Source: Iphione sp. A-MEVVRFRX5
Taxonomy: Eukaryota
Direction of reading: 5' to 3'
Assembly: GCA_976226885.1 (NCBI GenBank)
Contig: OZ320314.1
Location: 57,846,001-57,910,000 of the forward strand
DNA: 64,000 nucleotides
Shown: positions 3,001 through 64,000 of the stretch, piece after piece
Numbering within the stretch: position 1 is the first letter of the stretch
Layout of the letters: each line of letters starts with the position of its first letter
Notes under the pieces: model-generated
Seen by the model: the letters and a program-made list of their open reading frames with translations, nothing else
The model's database searches: none
What the model was told of the DNA's origin: nothing
Position numbers and translations under genes: made by a program

Positions 3001-6000
3001 CTGGCATCATGCCCTTCACGGGAGCCGTGCTGCTATCGTCCCGGGCCGACCTGGAGGGCCACACTCGCCTTTTAAGTGCACTTGCCATCGCTGTGCACAC
3101 CACGGAGATTGCGAAACTCTACTCGGGATATTTTCTTCACGTTATCTTCTGTGATGTGTACATTTATTGCTATACCCTGAGACAACGCGCAAAATAATTA
3201 TAGTGTCCCAGTAATGGTAGTCTTAGATAATTTAGTACATAATACCGCAAAGGAATTGGTTCTGAGAATACAAAAACTTTCAGATTTCCACAGACCGACA
3301 GAGCCCCAAAATATGTTGGTTTTCTATGCCCCTTGGTTTGCTTCCTGTGATTAGTATAACGCCTGTTAAATGTATAATGGATTGGATAAGAATACTTATC
3401 AGATGTCATGGGTTCGATGCATATTTATAGCAAACCATTTCTATTATGTGGTCGTTTGAGGTACAGCTCTAACGTCTCCCTAAGTATATCTACTGGATAG
3501 TAAATTAGGCGCATACGCTTTAATTTCTTCTGCTGAAGAAATCATCATGGAAGTCATGCTAGTTGCCGTGTCCTTTGAGACTTCAGTCCCTAGAGGGAAC
3601 AATACTACTAAAATCACTTTGTTCTTCAGGCAACTTAATGGATATTAAACATTTAGCATTTAAGTCCCTGATGGAAGTCGGCTGTTTGCTCAGGTTCTCC
3701 TGGATCACCTTCATCAAGTTCCCAATCTAAGTGCGTTTCTAGGCTTACTTGTCAATTAATATTACACATGTCCCTTGCTGTTTGCAAAAGCAGATAGCAT
3801 AGTCAACCTGCCACCAAACGCCTCAGTTTTATGACTTACATTACATCTATGGGATTCCGTAGTAGAAAGGCCTTCTCCAACTCTTTCTATCGATGCACGT
3901 GATCTTTTGTGTTTAGTTTCAACGTTTGTCGGACTTTTTCTCAAATACATCGGAAGTACATGTAATTCCATGTCAGTTTCTGAATTACGTAACTTATTGT
4001 GCACTGCTGCAACAGGGACAGATTATATTTGTCAGTTTGTATCCTACCCCCTGTCCGCATCTCTCATTCAAGCCCCAAGTATTGTGACTACTGAAATAGC
4101 GAACAGTCATGAACAGTCTCCTTAATAAAGGACTCATCTTGATTTGCTTCTGAGAGAAATGACTAGCAGCCATAACAGAGGGGTGGAATTGGGTCATTGT
4201 TATCAGGTCATACCTCAGACAACCTTTTCATGTAGAACTTAGTGTCGGTTTGGTATGCTGGTTTAAGCAACGGTATGGTGACGCGTACATGTAATTAAAT
4301 TAAATCAGTAAATGTACTGTATTTGTTTCCGTCTATATACTATGGTCAGCTCTGTCAGTGTCGGTCCGCCAGTGTAAAACGTAGGTTAGAGAGGATGGTC
4401 CTTTCGTAAATGTCGTCCTTTCGTAAATATAACTTAATAAGGGCACTATACTATACATGTACACTATGTACTTGGTTTAATTCAAGACACGTCTTCATAG
4501 GCATAGGGAGGTCAAAGAGACAAGTGTATTATGTATATATAAGTGTTAAAGGTTTTGGTGATTAAAGATGCATACGCAGTATTGTACGAGTTGCATGAAG
4601 TATAGTTTTGTGTTCAACATGAATCGAAGTTATTTGTATTTGTATGGAGTAATATTTACAATAAAATGTGTGCACATTTTGATACACGCAGTACTCCTAT
4701 ATGATGCAATCTGAGTAAACCTGCATGCAAGTTACAGACTTAGCATTTTCAACACTCTGTAAACTTCTGTCAAGCTCTGCAGTAAAAGCAAGAACCGAAC
4801 CTACCAAGTGAGCGTTCTGACTAATACGTTGTTAAAATGCATATGATGCTCATTTATGATGCATACCGCACTGATACATAGATCTGTTTTGAATATCATT
4901 ACAGTATCAATGAGTAGCCATTGTATATGCATATATGTATGAAATAGTATATGGGTGATATCAATCAACCAACACGCCATATGATATGCCTTTTCCATCA
5001 TTAACCTCTACTGGTATTCCGCTGATATGCGGTTTTACCTGCCTGTAAATGGTGCCATTATGATAAAGCTTGAAATGGCTAATTAATTGAAAACGCTCAG
5101 ATGGAGTGACGATCGTGATATGTTACGTAAACTATGGAAGCGCATAATTCATGTATCTCTGGATGGCACTTGCTTAGAATATGCCGTAAGAACGAATGTA
5201 GTGATTTTTTAATACCGCTATTTCCTCCCTTATAGCACCATCTTCAGGATTAGAGGGAAGATTTACATTCGATATACTATATGAAAACGACCTTGTATTT
5301 TAATCACCCCGGGGCCATCATAATATCAACACGTTACGTTTGTTGATGTATTCCATATTTATGCTTATCAATGATGCAATATTAGACAGCTAGAAAGTGG
5401 CACAACGTATACCGGACAGTTATTGTAAATAACGCTAACATGGTGGCTTCCTCCTATAGGATGTTTTATATTTATCATGGTGATGTATTGTCAGACATAG
5501 GACTGTCCGTAAGGAATCTAGATACAAGTGCACCTGGAGCAAAACTTTTTCCACAAAAAGACGCCGGAACTTGCACAGAGATCTCATTTCAGAAATCCCA
5601 TTTGGTACTTACTAGGCGTTGCTAAATTCAGACTGATGGCCACATTATCTTGGGCATCATTTCTCTGACTTGGCTTCCTCTATGGCTGCCTGAGTCAGTC
5701 GGATGCCCAGGACCGACCTATTTGGGGTCTGATGCGTAATTATTGCGAGTGCATGTTGCTGTCCGCGACAGGGCCCGACTGGGGGTCAAGTGACCATTTA
5801 GTGGCCGAGGTCACCGAGGGAGGGCCGTGTTTCTGAGATTCCTCTCCATCCCAAGCTGATTAGGTAGGGCTGATCTTTATGGAACAAGTCGGCGCGGTTG
5901 CTTTGAGTTAATCCTGCGGTATCAAAGCACTCCAACGTCGGACGTTGTAAGCACAAAGGAGGCATTGGACGTTGTTGTAAAGCTGCCTTTTCATGTTTTG

Positions 6001-8085: not shown

Positions 8086-11000
8086 CCTGCGAAAGGATAA
8101 AGGATTGGGATGGGATGGCCGCTCCTGTGATGGAATGTCTGTCCATCACCCTTCATGCTCGTGACACACCCCCATTTTGGTAAGGAGTGCCCATTTTGTT
8201 CTATGTGTCATGGTTTAGCGATGACTAAAACAGTGGAATGCACCAGAGCCACTACTAGCAACTCTTTTTTCGAATGATTCGTTAATGGGATCATCTGTAT
8301 ACTTGGACTATTTTCGAGGTTCATGAAAAAAGTCAAATACGAACAATAAACAAAGTATTAGACCTTTACGATGGACTGAATATTGAGGTACCTTTGTACG
8401 GTTATTCTATTCATGACTATTTCTTGTTTCGGGCATGCTCGTAGCAGTATTAATACTGCCTATAAAATTACCATTTTTAGACGTTTTATATTATTTTCCA
8501 AGTATCACGTTAACGAACAGGTGTCCACATGGTTCCTGATAATACATGTATATATTATTACATTATGTTTTACTAATTCTAGGACGAGTGAGACAACTTT
8601 ACCATATTGTCCGTGCCTTGCCTTCGACACGATGAATAAAAACTAATTGAGTAAGCTCTTTCTTGCAGTGTCATATCATAGGCGCTCTCGTGATTATTAT
8701 GAACCTGCGTTCTTCCTCAATTAACCATCAAGGTCATTATATCCTCGATTAAGGTCAATGTTTTGAAGGTGACATGTGGATTACCGGTTAATTATAACAT
8801 CATGTAACAACTTGCAAATTCCTTCTGAGAGACCCTGTCATTTCTTATGGTTCGTGTCGAAGACGGTGGTTATGTCAGGAAAAACCCGACGAGCACATGC
8901 CGGAATCTCCTTTCGTTGGCATGCGCACACATGATATGAGAATGTCAAAGGTTGTCTGAAGGTCACATCAAGGTTACCCTAACCCTAAAACGGAATTGTG
9001 ACGAAATCCCATTTGGAGCTTAATTATTCTAATGATTGTTCATTTAGTTTAAAACAAACAACCCATTTAATCTGCATACTTTAGTCATGCTTGCGTGCCC
9101 CATGTATGGAGCGGCCAATACAGCAGCCAATTAGGGGAGGTAAATGCTGTGATGCAGCGATAGCAGTTGTCAGCTCATACATTATGAAAGCATGTACGCC
9201 AATCCGATGGGAAGACATGGTAAGCATTATGGACGCCAAATTAGGGACGTACAAAATAGCTGCCCCGGGTCTGCCCCAGCATTCCAAACAACCCATTAAT
9301 TAAAGCTCTACCTCATCTGTAACAGCTCAACAAAGTCCAAAATAAATTACACGGAACAGGACAATAGAGGAGAAATACTGCTTGAAGGGACTGACGCTGC
9401 CCGAAGTGTGCTAGTTCAGGGCTCAAGGAAAGAGAGCATTGTGAGCCGTTTATAACGTCCGGTATGACAGACGCCAGGAATGCCTGCTAAATCACTTGTT
9501 ATTAAGTAGTGGGTTGAGCGGTCGCATGCCTCGCGCCTACACTATACATCAGGTGGTAGGACCGTTAATGATATAGGCCCTGGAGATGTATGGCATGGAA
9601 TGAAGCGGAGGGTAAATGGCATTACTGATCGGCCTCCGCTCGTTGAGTCAACTATTCATTTGGTAAGGTTGTCAGGCAATATGTAAATATATATTCTCAT
9701 GTGTATAATGTACATGTATATCATCTAAGTTATAATTACCCACAGAACATGAACCAACCAGCCACCCAAGATACGACGACCAGAATATTGAATTATTAAA
9801 TCGATCACGAGGTTCGTAACAAAAACCCCGGCTGTACTGATTTCCGCAAAGCACTCTGTTCTCCTATTTTTTCATACCAATACCTTCTACAATATGATAT
9901 TTGCTTTCGTTTTTTTCATATAACAACATCATAGCACGGCAGCTAAAACGCTGTAAAGCTAGTTAAAAAGAAAAATGAACTACATCCCACTGCCGATATG
10001 TCAGTGCCCGACACCTCTGTGCTAGGAGATCAGGTTGATATGTAGTTCCATAGGTCGCGAAGGGACCCCCCACTCCCTCCCCACAATACCATATAACTAC
10101 CACCCAACGCTAACCCACCCTCCTCCACATCGCGGCATTGTTCTGTGTTGTACTGAGTCGAGGGTTGAGGGTCATTGATCAGTGGGGCTCCTGGGCCTTG
10201 ATGGCCTGTCCTCCGGTGCGATGTATCATACTTCCTGTTCGATAGGGCTGACCTCCCTTTTTACTTTTACTTAAAGGGGCGAGCTGGTTGTTGAAACCGG
10301 AAGTAACCAGAAATGGACCAAACTAAAGATGCACTGTGAATTAATTTAATTCATGTTCCAAAGTGCATCACTCAGATGAGTATCACCCTTTCCTATATTT
10401 TTTCAAAGGTATTCGACGGACGTATAGGCCTAAGTGGAAATGACTCAAATGGAATCTGCCTGATGATGGAATTATTGCTTGAAGCGAATGACAAAAAGTT
10501 GGTTTGTTATACTTCAAAACTGTCACATATTTTTTTTCATATTCTCTTTCTCTTACCATCTGTCCATTGACAAGGTTATTTTCATCAGTTGGGTAGAGGG
10601 TTCCTTCCCAAGGCCGAATGGATGGTGGCTCCCCAATAAGGGCTCTATTTCAGACATGATGTTTCAAGGGAGTACGTTTTGAACTGTAATCTAAAATAAC
10701 CACTCAAGTATAAAGCAACAACTAAATTATCATTATCATTATTTTTCTTTCTTATTGTCATGGAGAGTTTTCTTTTCCTTAATTCATTATCGCCATGTCC
10801 ATTTCTTTTCATGGCTTCCCTTACACATCGGCCCTGGAGCAAATGCAACTAGCATTTTCGGTTATCGTTTAGTGCTAGGAAACACTTTTAATCTGTGCAC
10901 ACTCCATCAGGGATATTCCTCCTCTGATAGTATTTTTTCTCGTTTTGTTGGATACCAGTGTGATGAATCGGTTACAACAAAGTAATCCACCTGTCCTGTC

Positions 11001-57954: not shown

Positions 57955-58612
57955 ATGCGGACGATCGGACACGTACTAGTAATCTCCATGGATTGGTGGA
58001 GTCAGTTGTATGGATTCTACGGTGTAGAACAGAATAGAATGTATGGAAAAGTTTTTAAGCAAAACACATCAGAAAATTTTCTTGAACGATACAAGAAGTG
58101 TTACACCCAGAGTGATTATCAGTATTTTCGTACTGAAAACCGCAATCCATCTCTTAAATTGCTTAGTAGTTCCGCGATTGACGGAATGATCTTTCAAAAG
58201 GCAGTAAAACATAAATATTCGTGTTTTGCCTTCTTAACATGGGTCTGTGGTCAAACAGAGAAATCGATTGCGGCCTCGCCTTTGCCGTAATTTTAGGTTA
58301 ATAAGCAGACGTGTTCGCCAGTATCAGCCATCTGTTTTTCTTTTACCTTTCACAAGTTCGCCACGCTAAGGGATTACCTCACTTACATCGACTGGGAAGG
58401 AGAAGTGCACATACAAAATTGATGACACCTGTTCCTGGTCCTATACTGTTCCATGAAACCGAGTGCACATCGATAAGCAGTTTTGCTGGCCTCCTGCTTG
58501 TGGTAATTGGCTTGGTCGAAGAGTAACTGCCTTTACGTACTGCAGTGAATGGCGATCGAGCAAAGACTGAGCCTACACCCGAAAACAAATCCGTAATCAC
58601 TACGTTCACGGC
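57955..58612 (+). pseudogene. Degraded coding-like sequence truncated by the Maverick-like insertion
   Basis: 111-aa ORF (DWWSQLYGFYGVEQNRMYGKVF...) followed by protein-like fragments in shifting frames (FATLRDYLTYIDWEGEVH; KQFCWPPACGNWLGRR), ending at the element terminus. Family not recognised. Confidence 0.25.
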
Positions 58613-58650
58613 AGTAGTGTAGTAGGAGCAACCCTTGGACACAGTTTTAA

Positions 58651-58820
58651 GGTCACGTGACCAATGACGTCACATGTCACGTGTCCTGTGACGTCACTGG
58701 TCACGTGACAGATCCTCAGAGGGAGGGGGCAACATCACGTGACAAGCAAACGTCATGGGTCACATGATAGATAGTATGGGGAGGGAGGGTGCAGGAGGAA
58801 TCACATGATCACTGACGTCA
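58651..58820. promoter_or_regulatory. Subterminal E-box/CRE array: 24-bp unit x2.5 plus dispersed copies
   Basis: Units GGTCACGTGACCAATGACGTCACA (58651-74), TGTCACGTGTCCTGTGACGTCACT (58675-98), GGTCACGTGACA (58699-710). CACGTG at 58654, 58678, 58702, 58736; TGACGTCA at 58665, 58689, 58813. Confidence 0.8.
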
Positions 58821-59331: not shown

Positions 59332-60569
59332 ATGGAACCAATCTCAAGTAACGTATACATGGAGATGTATCAAGACACAGTGAAAATCGAAAGGAGAAGA
59401 GGTAATGCGACTATAAGAAAAATCAGAGTACACAGACAACTATTTGACATCGCCGACCAGTGTTGGGCAAACTTGCAAGAGGGTGAAGAAATGAAAGTGA
59501 CGGTAGACCACAAGATCTGGGTCATAGAGATGAAGACATATGCAGGGAGAGAATACGTTTGCTTTGTTCGTCAATCTAGAGATGGTGATCGTATTAAGTA
59601 AGTGACTAGATAAATAATACACGCAATTTAGAGTGACTATACTGACTCATCAGTAATCGCAGATAAGCAGTATCACACACACACACATCTTTATCGAGTG
59701 ATGTACATTGATTGATATTAATAATCTATATATATAATGGACACAGTATCAATTTCTACTGATATTAGGAGTTTAACATCGTACAGTATAGGTACTATTA
59801 TTGCAGTTACGATTGTTTCAATCTTACGGAGGACGAGTGTATGACAGCAATTGAACGCATAAAGAAGGAAACAAGGGTCACAGAGCAAGACAAGGGGCAA
59901 GACAGAGACGAGACAAAGGAGAAAGTCGCAGAGACCACAAATAAAAAGGACACTGAACAGGGAGCAGACGAAGATGAGCCAAGTAAGAAGAAGATGAAAA
60001 CGGAAGAACCAAAAGAAGCGGAGCCAATCAAGTATAACCGTTATACATATCTATTAACGTCTTGTGTTGATGGGAAAGCGGTTAGTAGTAAACGTTCGTA
60101 TATTTGTCGTGATTTCTGTGTTGCTGAGGCCACAATTGAACAAGCTGCCAATGACATGGTTGAATTTCCAGTAGATGAAGACCTATTAATCAAAGTTAGT
60201 GAACTGGTCGAGAAAGTATATGCATTTATGATTCAAGCAGAATACAAAGCTAAAATAAAGGAATGGTGTAGGGGATGTGACTGCGACGAGGGTAACCAGG
60301 CAGCACATATCCCAGGATGTGTGAAACTACCAGACGAGTTAGATTCAACCGCTGTTCATGCAGCTCATATCAGGGTATCCGTCACAAGGCTGATAGAAGC
60401 TAGCATTCGCATGTACAAAGTGTACATAGGTAATAAGCACATTGAGGACGATGAGGTACCAATTGACGTCGATGTATGCAGAAAAGTAATCGAAGAAGGT
60501 GAAAAGTATGCAGAAGTGTACATGACTTTGGAATTTGAACGAGATTATGATATCATCGCTAGAATGTAA
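59332..60569 (+). CDS. Two-exon gene (59332-59597 + 59807-60569, 342 aa): N-terminal PC4-like ssDNA-binding domain, acidic/Lys linker, C-terminal domain with WCRGCDCDEGNQAAHIPGC Cys/His motif
   Basis: Donor AA|GTAAGT at 59598 and acceptor TTATTGCAG| at 59806 (209-nt intron) join two ORF-track ORFs in frame: ...RIK-N-YDCFNLTEDEC-MTAIERI. TATATAT at 59301 lies about 30 nt upstream of the ATG. The PC4 similarity (WVIEMKTYAGREYVCF...DG...FNLTEDEC..AIERI vs RYVSVRDFKGKVLIDI...G...ISLNPEQW..LKEQI) was judged by eye. Confidence 0.8.
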
Positions 60570-60967: not shown

Positions 60968-61200
60968 CAGTGATATATTATATGTGTATTATTAATATAT
61001 GTTATCCAAGTTTTGAAGGCATTATGCAGCATATAAGAAACTGAACTGTCACTATCACATGTTCAGTCAGTAGCAGTAAATATATAAGTTATATATAATG
61101 TATGCATATTATTAAATATATGTTATCCAAGTCTTAATGGGTATGCGGTATATAGGAGGAACCGAACCGTCACTATCACTTGCAAATTCAATAGGAGTGA
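60968..61200. repeat. About 121-bp diverged tandem duplication
   Basis: GTTATCCAAGT at 61001 and 61122; GTCACTATCAC at 61048 and 61169. Confidence 0.8.
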
Positions 61201-62307: not shown

Positions 62308-64000
62308 CAAATTCTGCGGGCAAATTCTGCAACTGCAACGAGAAGGAGGTATAAATACAAAGCAAGAACATTATATAGATAATTTACAAAGCATGAACCC
62401 AACGCATAGCAAAACGATATGATATATTAAGTATATGAACACACTTACATATATATTACACAGGCACATAATGCTAGTTAAAGCATGAACCCATCGCATA
62501 GCAAGTGATATGAAATATTAAGTACATTAACACACTCACACATATATATATACACAGTCACATAATTTAGCTAAACTCGTACCCGTTCAGAGCGACGAAC
62601 GTGAGGAGGTGTGGGACTCCCAGCAAGACGACCACGACGAAGATCGTAGCCATGTATGGATTGAGTCTCGATCAAACTGCTATCGGACACAACAGACGAA
62701 GTACTATCCCGTCGCTCACGACGACTCCAATTACAAGATGATGGAGATGGCATCATTTCAAAGTCAAGTTGTCTGGGTCGAATTTTCCTTTTCTTATGAG
62801 TGTGACGTGGAGTTGCTTGTATGGCAGTGTCTGACACTGTAGAAGACACACTCGGATGTCTAGACCTTGATTCAGGTGGTGGTGGAGACAGAGGAAACGA
62901 GGCAGCGTATGCTGTTGCTCTGGCCTTATCAACGTCATGTCCATGTTCCACATATCGAGGGCAATTAGCATTTGTGAGTGTCACGTCAAGCTCACTATCA
63001 GTCCCATTATCAGGAGAGGTCACAGATGATAACGGGTGCGGTATGTCACCACTACCAGATGTCGCAAGTATAGTGCGTATCCTGTCAGTGATCGAAACTG
63101 AAGAGCAAGACATTGAAGGTGGAAGAGGATAATACTCATCAGTTTCTACCATCTCTGATTCCTCTCTAGTCGGCGAATCAACTAAGGGAGTCTCAAGACA
63201 AGCAGAACGAGAAGGAGTGGCACAATTGTTGGCTGTTGTGGAGGTGGCTGTAGAAGTTGTAGAATGCACGTTCAGACGCGTTGTAGTGATAGATAGACAA
63301 ACTGGTGTAACATCTCCCCGACAAGGGGCTGGTAACGCCCGTCCCGTGAAAGGGACATGGTACGACGTAGACGTAAACGACGAACATGGAATACGTGAAT
63401 GGTGCGATCCATCAAAGATGACACTGTCTTGATTACCGACGGTTGTCGACACACATGTGGATGAATATCCAGCGTAGGGCGCCACTAGTAGAGTAGATGC
63501 AAGCAGATTTGATAGCATGGACGAGGTCGACATTGATGGTGTAAAACAGGGACGTCGTGAGTCGCCAAGGGCAACAGTCCACAATACAGCCAAAGAAGTA
63601 GGTGTAGACGACAACTGTGAACGTGAGAGATGGGGCAGTGGCGTTCCAGACAAACCAGTCAGGAGATTACCTCCCATAGAAGCACAATATGATGAATAGT
63701 GAGGGTCACCATTCATCGGCAACACTGGGAGAACGGGTGGAGAGGAAACAGATGCACGACACACGTTCCCAGTGTAGCGCAAGTGTTGTGGAGTAGCATC
63801 AAGCGAAGTAGGTACAGTTGATAGCATTGCTGTACCACATGCGAAGAGACGTTTCTCAACAGGGGCGACCCTAGTGTTTGCAGATATGGGAGACATCAAA
63901 GTAGAAGCCGGTGGACGAGCAGAGGGAAGTGGAGTAGACATCAGTTGCAGAGGACGAGAATAACGACCATCAGTCGTAACACGTGAAGATGTATGTTGTA
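62297..64000 (-). CDS. 5'-incomplete Ser/Thr/Pro-rich, probably disordered protein (>476 aa in the main exon 64000-62583, plus a putative terminal exon 62332-62297 encoding LQNLPAEFDGL)
   Basis: The 456-aa ORF frame stays open to the window edge. Donor CGG|GTACGA at 62582 and a strong polypyrimidine acceptor CTCCTTCTCGTTGCAG ending 62333 give ...RRSER-LQNLPAEFDGL*. The ORF contains HKKRKIRPRQLDF and HGYDLRRG. The splice is predicted only. Confidence 0.65.
62388..62571. repeat. 92-bp diverged tandem duplication inside the predicted intron
   Basis: AAAGCATGAACCCA(A/T)CGCATAGCAA...ATATTAAGTA...AACACACT...CACATAAT begins at both 62388 and 62480. Confidence 0.85.

Follow-up and report, generated by a model that had tools for sequence, protein, structure and literature searches.

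Two neighbouring open reading frames (ORFs) in a 64,000-nucleotide stretch of the Iphione sp. A-MEVVRFRX5 genome (assembly GCA_976226885.1, contig OZ320314.1, positions 57,846,001 to 57,910,000; hereafter the window) are the exons of a single gene carried by a Maverick/Polinton element. Our analysis identifies it as a real, conserved, spliced and core-like gene of animal Mavericks, whose product joins what is probably a PC4/PUR-type domain to a CCHC module. An initial annotation, made from the window alone, had proposed a spliced fusion of a PC4-like fold for binding single-stranded DNA (ssDNA) to a cysteine/histidine-rich domain, and had suggested a virus-like origin. The location of the gene within an integrated Maverick agrees with the latter, and the remaining proposals are taken up where the evidence bears on them.

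A conserved intron joins the two open reading frames

The spliced product is 342 residues long, whereas an in-frame stop inside the intron donor would end the product at 89 residues without splicing. The initial annotation had linked the ORFs by this canonical intron, and we found its splice sites conserved far beyond the window copy. Exon 2 has 675 candidate places in the 1.18-Gb genome, of which 150 were scored and 40 picked across identity classes; these represent about 15 families, several of them with near-identical members. All 40 copies carry a GTAAGT donor and an AG acceptor at the same phase-2 codon, with exons 36–68% identical to those of the window copy, while their introns range from 79 to 351 nt and fall into all three length classes modulo 3. 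A deeper set of 20 was taken from 127 matches to a homolog from outside this genome, and became 18 once L091 (donor not seen at the exon end) and L107 (exon 2 broken) were dropped. The GT donor was present in 18/18 of these and the acceptor in 17/18, with introns of 125–606 nt. Since donor and acceptor are conserved at one codon while intron length varies, the splice is more than chance, and these alignments confirm, at the level of sequence, that it is real and that its position is kept across very distant copies. The junction codon encodes Asn, so that the junction reads RI-N-YDCF. Exon 2 is predicted to finish the second PC4-like repeat, in line with the initial annotation, but the Lys of the junction then given as RIK|NYDCF exists in the unspliced frame only. 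No unsplit copy was seen in the genome of the window, open frames being 63–149 residues long across 150 exon-1 matches and 183–288 residues across the 127 matches to an unsplit homolog.

Outside this genome, a profile of the C-terminal domain matched 46 proteins among 1.84 billion, several of which are single ORFs of 305–344 residues running across the junction position. A profile built from the in-genome N-terminal domains only matched 7 of 79 stored proteins over positions 4–110, thereby spanning the junction at 89, with E-values of 4e-8 or better. Three homologs (P0021, P0050 and P0052) are probably unsplit genes, because they lie on contigs of 1–5 Mb. None of the ten outside homologs looked up bears a name. 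A word-based search with exon 2 found no homolog among 212 candidates and one with the homolog alignment found three proteins; sequence searches of the PDB gave nothing useful. Taken together, these data make it very improbable that the window holds two separate ORFs with a coincidental or seldom-used intron. In favour of separate ORFs, a Met lies 12 codons into exon 2 of the window copy, but a Met occurs among the first 30 exon-2 codons in just 18/37 products, the splice sites are kept in both sets of copies despite drifting intron length, and the seven single-ORF proteins are matched straight across the junction.

The gene lies in a Maverick/Polinton

Comparison with five other copies, four whole and one partial, delimits an element 22,338 bp long, with its left end at window position 58613 and its right end beyond the window. 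It has terminal inverted repeats (TIRs) with AG...CT ends and a 6-bp target-site duplication (TSD); such a TSD is present in 5/5 close copies with both ends, and the four other copies each have their own TSD sequence. The element encodes a family B DNA polymerase of the protein-primed kind (PolB; DNA_pol_B_2, E 7e-5, below cut-off), a retroviral-like integrase (Pfam rve, E 3e-11, over cut-off, plus a chromodomain) and an A32-like ATPase (Pox_A32, E 0.009, below cut-off). Further ORFs, conserved across lineages and without a Pfam match, have sizes and an order that suit capsid proteins and a protease; from these features and from motifs, we take them to encode putative major and minor capsid proteins and an adenain-like protease. 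On the evidence of its TIRs, TSD and integrase, polymerase and ATPase genes, the element is a Maverick/Polinton.

The first 260 bp of the element hold four CACGTG and four TGACGT-type sites (counts without a chance control), which we presume to be E-box-like and cyclic-AMP-response-element (CRE)-like, respectively. In 14/15 families a TATA-like box lies within 130 bp upstream of the start codon, this region being AT-rich and the count again without a chance control.

The gene behaves as a core gene

Counted from the left end of the element, the gene comes first among the ORFs; that end was found 384–1006 bp before the start codon in 37/40 copies and, by BLAST, in a 38th. Six 30-kb regions around moderately diverged copies showed the same gene order in five cases, the other passing into a second Maverick. 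Around six deep copies, capsid, integrase and ATPase matches were present in five regions, down to 29% capsid identity, and in one region there were none. Among 15 families, synonymous divergence (dS) was saturated in 91/105 pairs for exon 1 and 82/105 for the C-terminal domain; the unsaturated pairs gave a median ratio of non-synonymous to synonymous divergence (dN/dS) of 0.23 and 0.22, respectively, with a maximum of 0.34. We compared phylogenies across 12 elements of this one genome. Exon-1 distances correlated with those of the ATPase, integrase and capsid at rho 0.92–0.96 and C-terminal domain distances at rho 0.75–0.77 (Mantel p 0.0015 or less), and the four trees had identical deep clades and discordant shallow nodes. 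Because the gene is under purifying selection, tracks the phylogeny of the core genes and keeps its position, these comparisons indicate that it is vertically inherited and behaves as a core gene rather than cargo.

Some copies show other arrangements. The region that contains L085–L087 (G000:C19:27406501-27436500) holds the left part of one Maverick, after which comes another that is more distant (53% capsid identity) and has a copy of the gene itself, probably through nested or adjacent insertion. In the deepest lineage (L108–L110 and L114–L116; capsid 29–30% identical) the capsid module has the best polymerase match on its left, in the opposite orientation. One family has the PC4-like gene twice, as tandem copies that have diverged (L070:2031-3182 and 3540-4866), both of them split into two ORFs.

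The N-terminal domain is predicted to have a PC4/PUR-type fold

The model of exon 1 (predicted local distance difference test score, pLDDT, 94; built from 33 sequences) comprises three strands and a helix followed by three strands, and that of exon 2 has a brief extended segment at its start and then a long helix. PUR-alpha repeats I-II were the top match to the exon-1 model in three structure searches: with Foldseek (E 0.046, template-modelling (TM) score 0.53), in a wide search (Z 4.9, root-mean-square deviation (rmsd) 4.7, 88 residues aligned) and in a further search (Z 5.3, rmsd 4.0–4.3, 88/88 residues). These searches also returned SsgB, PC4 (chain 6ycs, Z 3.7) and MRP1/2, amid unrelated rows of similar Z. 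A low-confidence Atlas model of residues 1–118 of the unsplit homolog P0024 (pLDDT 0.52) matched a viral cluster with 42% PC4 members (TM 0.73), two PC4 clusters (0.65 and 0.64), a part aligned to PurA, and three clusters without names whose members are mostly from arthropods, all of these matches lying below the bar set by the service for naming a family.

A profile of repeat 2 (55 rows) aligned with 13 PC4 domains over 50 columns across the junction, scoring 19.7 against a maximum of 16.0 in 60 column shuffles; scores of repeat 1 against PC4 and against repeat 2 were not above shuffles. Basic residues are conserved at positions 21–23, 29, 30, 73, 80 and 87 (including R21, K/R22, R23, R29, R80 and R87) and aromatic residues at 63, 70, 75 and 78, with the hairpin aromatic Y/F70 kept in 96% of the 55 rows, a pattern consistent with nucleic-acid binding. 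Pfam PurA had no match in the window exons, the 46 homologs or 16 further proteins, and a genome-wide search with Pfam PC4 (PF02229) found one locus, the host gene. The PC4 exon of that gene is most similar to proteins of nemerteans, bryozoans, molluscs and brachiopods, which makes the host probably a lophotrochozoan. The top matches to exon 1 in a viral library were all unnamed or uncharacterised, and the Atlas gave no feature match for the homolog N-terminal domain.

We therefore predict from the models that the N-terminal domain consists of two PC4/PUR-type repeats in one pseudo-dimeric domain. It likely works like a PC4/PUR domain, yet by the family's own test it is not a member of PF02229. 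The PC4-like fold first proposed is thus supported by the PUR-alpha and PC4-containing matches, albeit at middling scores (E 0.046 and Z 5.3 at best), but not by Pfam PC4. Its suggestion of a degenerate first repeat, giving a single-chain pseudo-dimer, agrees with the predicted beta-beta-beta-helix unit and with the full-length alignment to PUR-alpha repeats I-II, but sequence similarity of that repeat to PC4 or to repeat 2 did not emerge.

The C-terminal domain carries a putative zinc module

The linker between the domains varies strongly in length and acidity and is nearly absent in deep lineages. In the domain that follows, the motif W-C-x-G-C-x9-H-x-P-x-C is present in 37/37 intact in-genome exon-2 products, and a looser C-C-H-C pattern in 42/46 outside homologs, of which 28/46 have QxxH. 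A fifth invariant Cys lies upstream, in the beta-rich part of the domain. The four invariant Cys/His residues expected of a CCHC zinc-binding module are therefore present in the sequence and are likely zinc ligands. Of the potential metal-binding residues noted initially, this CCHC-type set is invariant, whereas the Gln and the extra Cys of GCDC vary among copies; the domain, then described as helical, does contain a helical bundle, but its first part is rich in beta structure. In the apo model it is the region around the motif that has low confidence, which would fit a loop that binds metal. Fold searches with the exon-2 model gave no clear match (the best being Z 5.9 over 47 residues to topoisomerase, and E 0.007 among viral entries) and the Atlas no feature match for the domain; a missing structural match of a predicted model is no proof of a new fold.

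A possible role in protein-primed replication

Polintons are thought to replicate by protein-primed strand displacement. Protein-primed replicons, namely Bam35, phi29, PRD1 and adenovirus, have their own ssDNA-binding protein (SSB), according to the available text of 10.1101/2021.03.25.437074, and phage T5 uses a PC4-type SSB (PMC7145681, available text). Because of these precedents and the PC4/PUR-type domain, the reading we favour is that the gene product is the element's ssDNA-binding protein in protein-primed replication, a claim that in our judgement is evenly poised between right and wrong. Host polymerase II would transcribe the gene early from a TIR-proximal promoter and the host spliceosome would take out the intron; the basic linker would direct the protein to the nucleus. 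The N-terminal domain would coat the strands that the protein-primed polymerase displaces, and the C-terminal domain, of zinc type, would mediate oligomerization or partner binding. We regard as possible, if somewhat doubtful, the fuller proposition that a core gene has been overlooked in a whole branch of animal Polintons, a gene that encodes a PC4/PUR-fold ssDNA-binding protein with a zinc module and is masked from ORF-based annotation by an ancient intron.

Several observations weigh against this role or the fold on which it draws. The gene lies at the opposite end of the element from the polymerase, and folds of the PC4/PUR type also serve in RNA binding and in transcription. Pfam PC4 was unmatched by the window exons taken separately, by the 46 homologs, unsplit ones included, and by the 16 further proteins, and the hhalign probability for repeat 2 against PC4 is just 20%. 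The fold scores (Z 4.9–5.3, rmsd 4.0–4.7; Foldseek E 0.046) lie in a range that the tool calls common and stem from a model without the last strand and helix. Moreover, our alignment shows no conserved aromatic residue in the place of W89, the base-stacking Trp that closes strand 3 of PC4. Finally, vertebrate Mavericks are described as having eight conserved ORFs that lack introns, and the available text of PMC8097293 names no such gene among them, so that some Mavericks may not need it.

The gene's place at the end of the element, its intron and the promoter-like TIR suit an early gene, and suit a transcriptional activator equally well. As the main alternative, the product could be an immediate-early activator whose PC4-like domain would bind melted promoter DNA and whose acidic linker and zinc module would bring in host machinery, so that the element's other genes are turned on. 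In adenoviruses, a terminal, spliced early gene activates other genes in much this way. The gene here is likewise the first behind a TIR rich in E-box/CRE/CCAAT-like sites and with a TATA-like box, it is spliced whereas in this copy the ORFs for core replication and capsid proteins are long and open, it encodes an acidic linker, and PC4 itself is a coactivator (PMC7145681, available text). That linker, however, is the strongly variable part that deep lineages nearly lack, and LxCxE occurs in only 1/37 exon-2 products and 2/46 homologs, so that the gene is not an 'Oncoid' as defined in the available text of PMC8502044 and membership of that Adintovirus group (LxCxE beside paired CXXC) was rejected. 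On balance we consider an activator rather unlikely. PUR-alpha binds RNA. Its rank as top structural match, together with the presence of MRP1/2, including a guide-RNA complex, would suit an RNA-binding or host-defence modulator in which a PUR/MRP-like domain would bind element transcripts or small RNAs of the host. Rapid turnover is usual for counter-defence genes, however, whereas the present gene stays in position and shares the phylogeny of the core genes, which leaves such a modulator improbable.

Relation to known systems

PUR-alpha repeats I-II (PDB 8cht, 5fgp and 3k44) share with the predicted domain two beta-sheet/helix repeats in one chain, but are only 7–9% identical to it; here the repeats are shorter, there is no third PUR repeat, a CCHC domain is fused and the gene belongs to a mobile element. 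The PC4/Sub1 C-terminal domain and the T5 PC4-type SSB are in register with repeat 2 along 50 columns, among them the aromatic-Gly hairpin and the final strand-helix. PC4 is a homodimer, however, as opposed to the single-chain pseudo-dimer predicted here, and its W89 has no kept counterpart. The SSBs of protein-primed replicons (Bam35 ORF2, phi29 SSB, PRD1 P12 and adenovirus DBP) are alike in proposed role only, having other folds and being absent from the structure-search matches listed. Adenovirus DBP binds zinc.

Nematode Mavericks have intron-bearing cargo beside the left TIR (10.1101/2022.07.12.499685, available text) and so resemble the present element in having an intron-bearing gene just inside that repeat. 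Maverick cargo, Adintoc and Oncoid genes differ from the gene here, which is not a low-conservation, host-derived gene but holds its position, is subject to purifying selection and agrees with the core genes in phylogeny, with LxCxE in a single in-genome product. The two-domain PC4 genes of the bay scallop (PMC9223095, available text), which might have been an earlier sighting of the gene, match PC4 by SMART. In a term search, PC4 was absent from the main texts, as available, of 10.1101/2024.03.18.585575, 10.1101/2023.08.22.554363, 10.64898/2026.10.13.758929, PMC8502044 and 10.1101/2022.07.12.499685. Literature searches combining Adintovirus or Teratorn with PC4 gave no match, and among the matches listed for Polinton/Maverick with PC4 the word occurred only in a C. 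elegans annotation paper. No description of a spliced PC4-like gene for Mavericks/Polintons was found in the literature searched, although the unnamed 'Adintoc' groups of PMC8502044, as far as its available text goes, or repeat-database annotations may already hold the family under another name.

Features of the window and neighbouring genes

The table gives the features of the element's left end, the gene and its convergent neighbour. That neighbour is an 885-residue open frame (L011:4571-7228) that runs past the window; it is Ser/Thr/Pro-rich with a basic C-terminal end and has no Pfam match. In the non-coding stretch between the convergent genes, short direct repeats lie at 60994-61140 and 62388-62566, with spacings of 121 bp and about 91 bp. 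Further along, two small predicted membrane proteins form a head-to-head pair (L011:7472-8146, minus strand, and 8832-9656, plus strand) that is kept in most lineages, and the protein-primed polymerase (L012:5991-9998, minus strand) carries a C-terminal NADAR domain (PF08719, E 1e-10, over cut-off) at about residues 1211–1334 of the partial sequence. The Maverick load of this genome is very large, to judge from the 675 candidate exon-2 places, and several protein-identical copies per family suggest recent activity in many Maverick families.

Table 1. Features at the left end of the Maverick/Polinton, in window coordinates (protein features in residues where stated)
Feature	Position	Strand	Basis
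Left TSD, 6 bp, CACGGC; repeated past the right end of the element, outside the window	58607..58612		
Left TIR, 117 bp, starting AGTAGT	58613..58729	+	copy comparison
Palindrome within TIR	58652..58709		sequence
TATA-like boxes upstream of start codon	59230..59307	+	sequence
Exon 1, 88 codons + 2 nt: encodes predicted repeat 1 plus three of the strands of repeat 2	59332..59597	+	
Predicted repeat 1: strands 8-13, 16-23 and 26-34, helix 35-49 (residues)	in exon 1		model
Intron, 209 nt, GTAAGT...TTGCAG, GT-AG, phase 2	59598..59806	+	
Exon 2	59807..60569	+	
Beginning of exon 2: the strand and helix that end repeat 2, aligned with the C-terminal strand and helix of PC4	59807..59891	+	
Linker, acidic/basic, variable, predicted disordered	59892..60008	+	
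Basic cluster PSKKKMK, like a nuclear localization signal by sequence	59979-59999	+	
Conserved C-terminal domain: beta-rich part and helical bundle	60024..60566	+	
C-x2-C-x9-H-x3-C motif, putative zinc ligands	60267..60320	+	alignment
Convergent Ser/Thr-rich ORF, 3' part; 885-residue open frame running past the window	62571..64000	-	

Significance

The Polinton literature that we searched names no ssDNA-binding helper, and the gene described here offers a concrete, small candidate whose product should be easily purified. Intact vertebrate elements are described as intronless (PMC8097293, available text), in contrast to the spliced, core-like gene of the present element. Annotation by ORFs only thus misses conserved Polinton genes.
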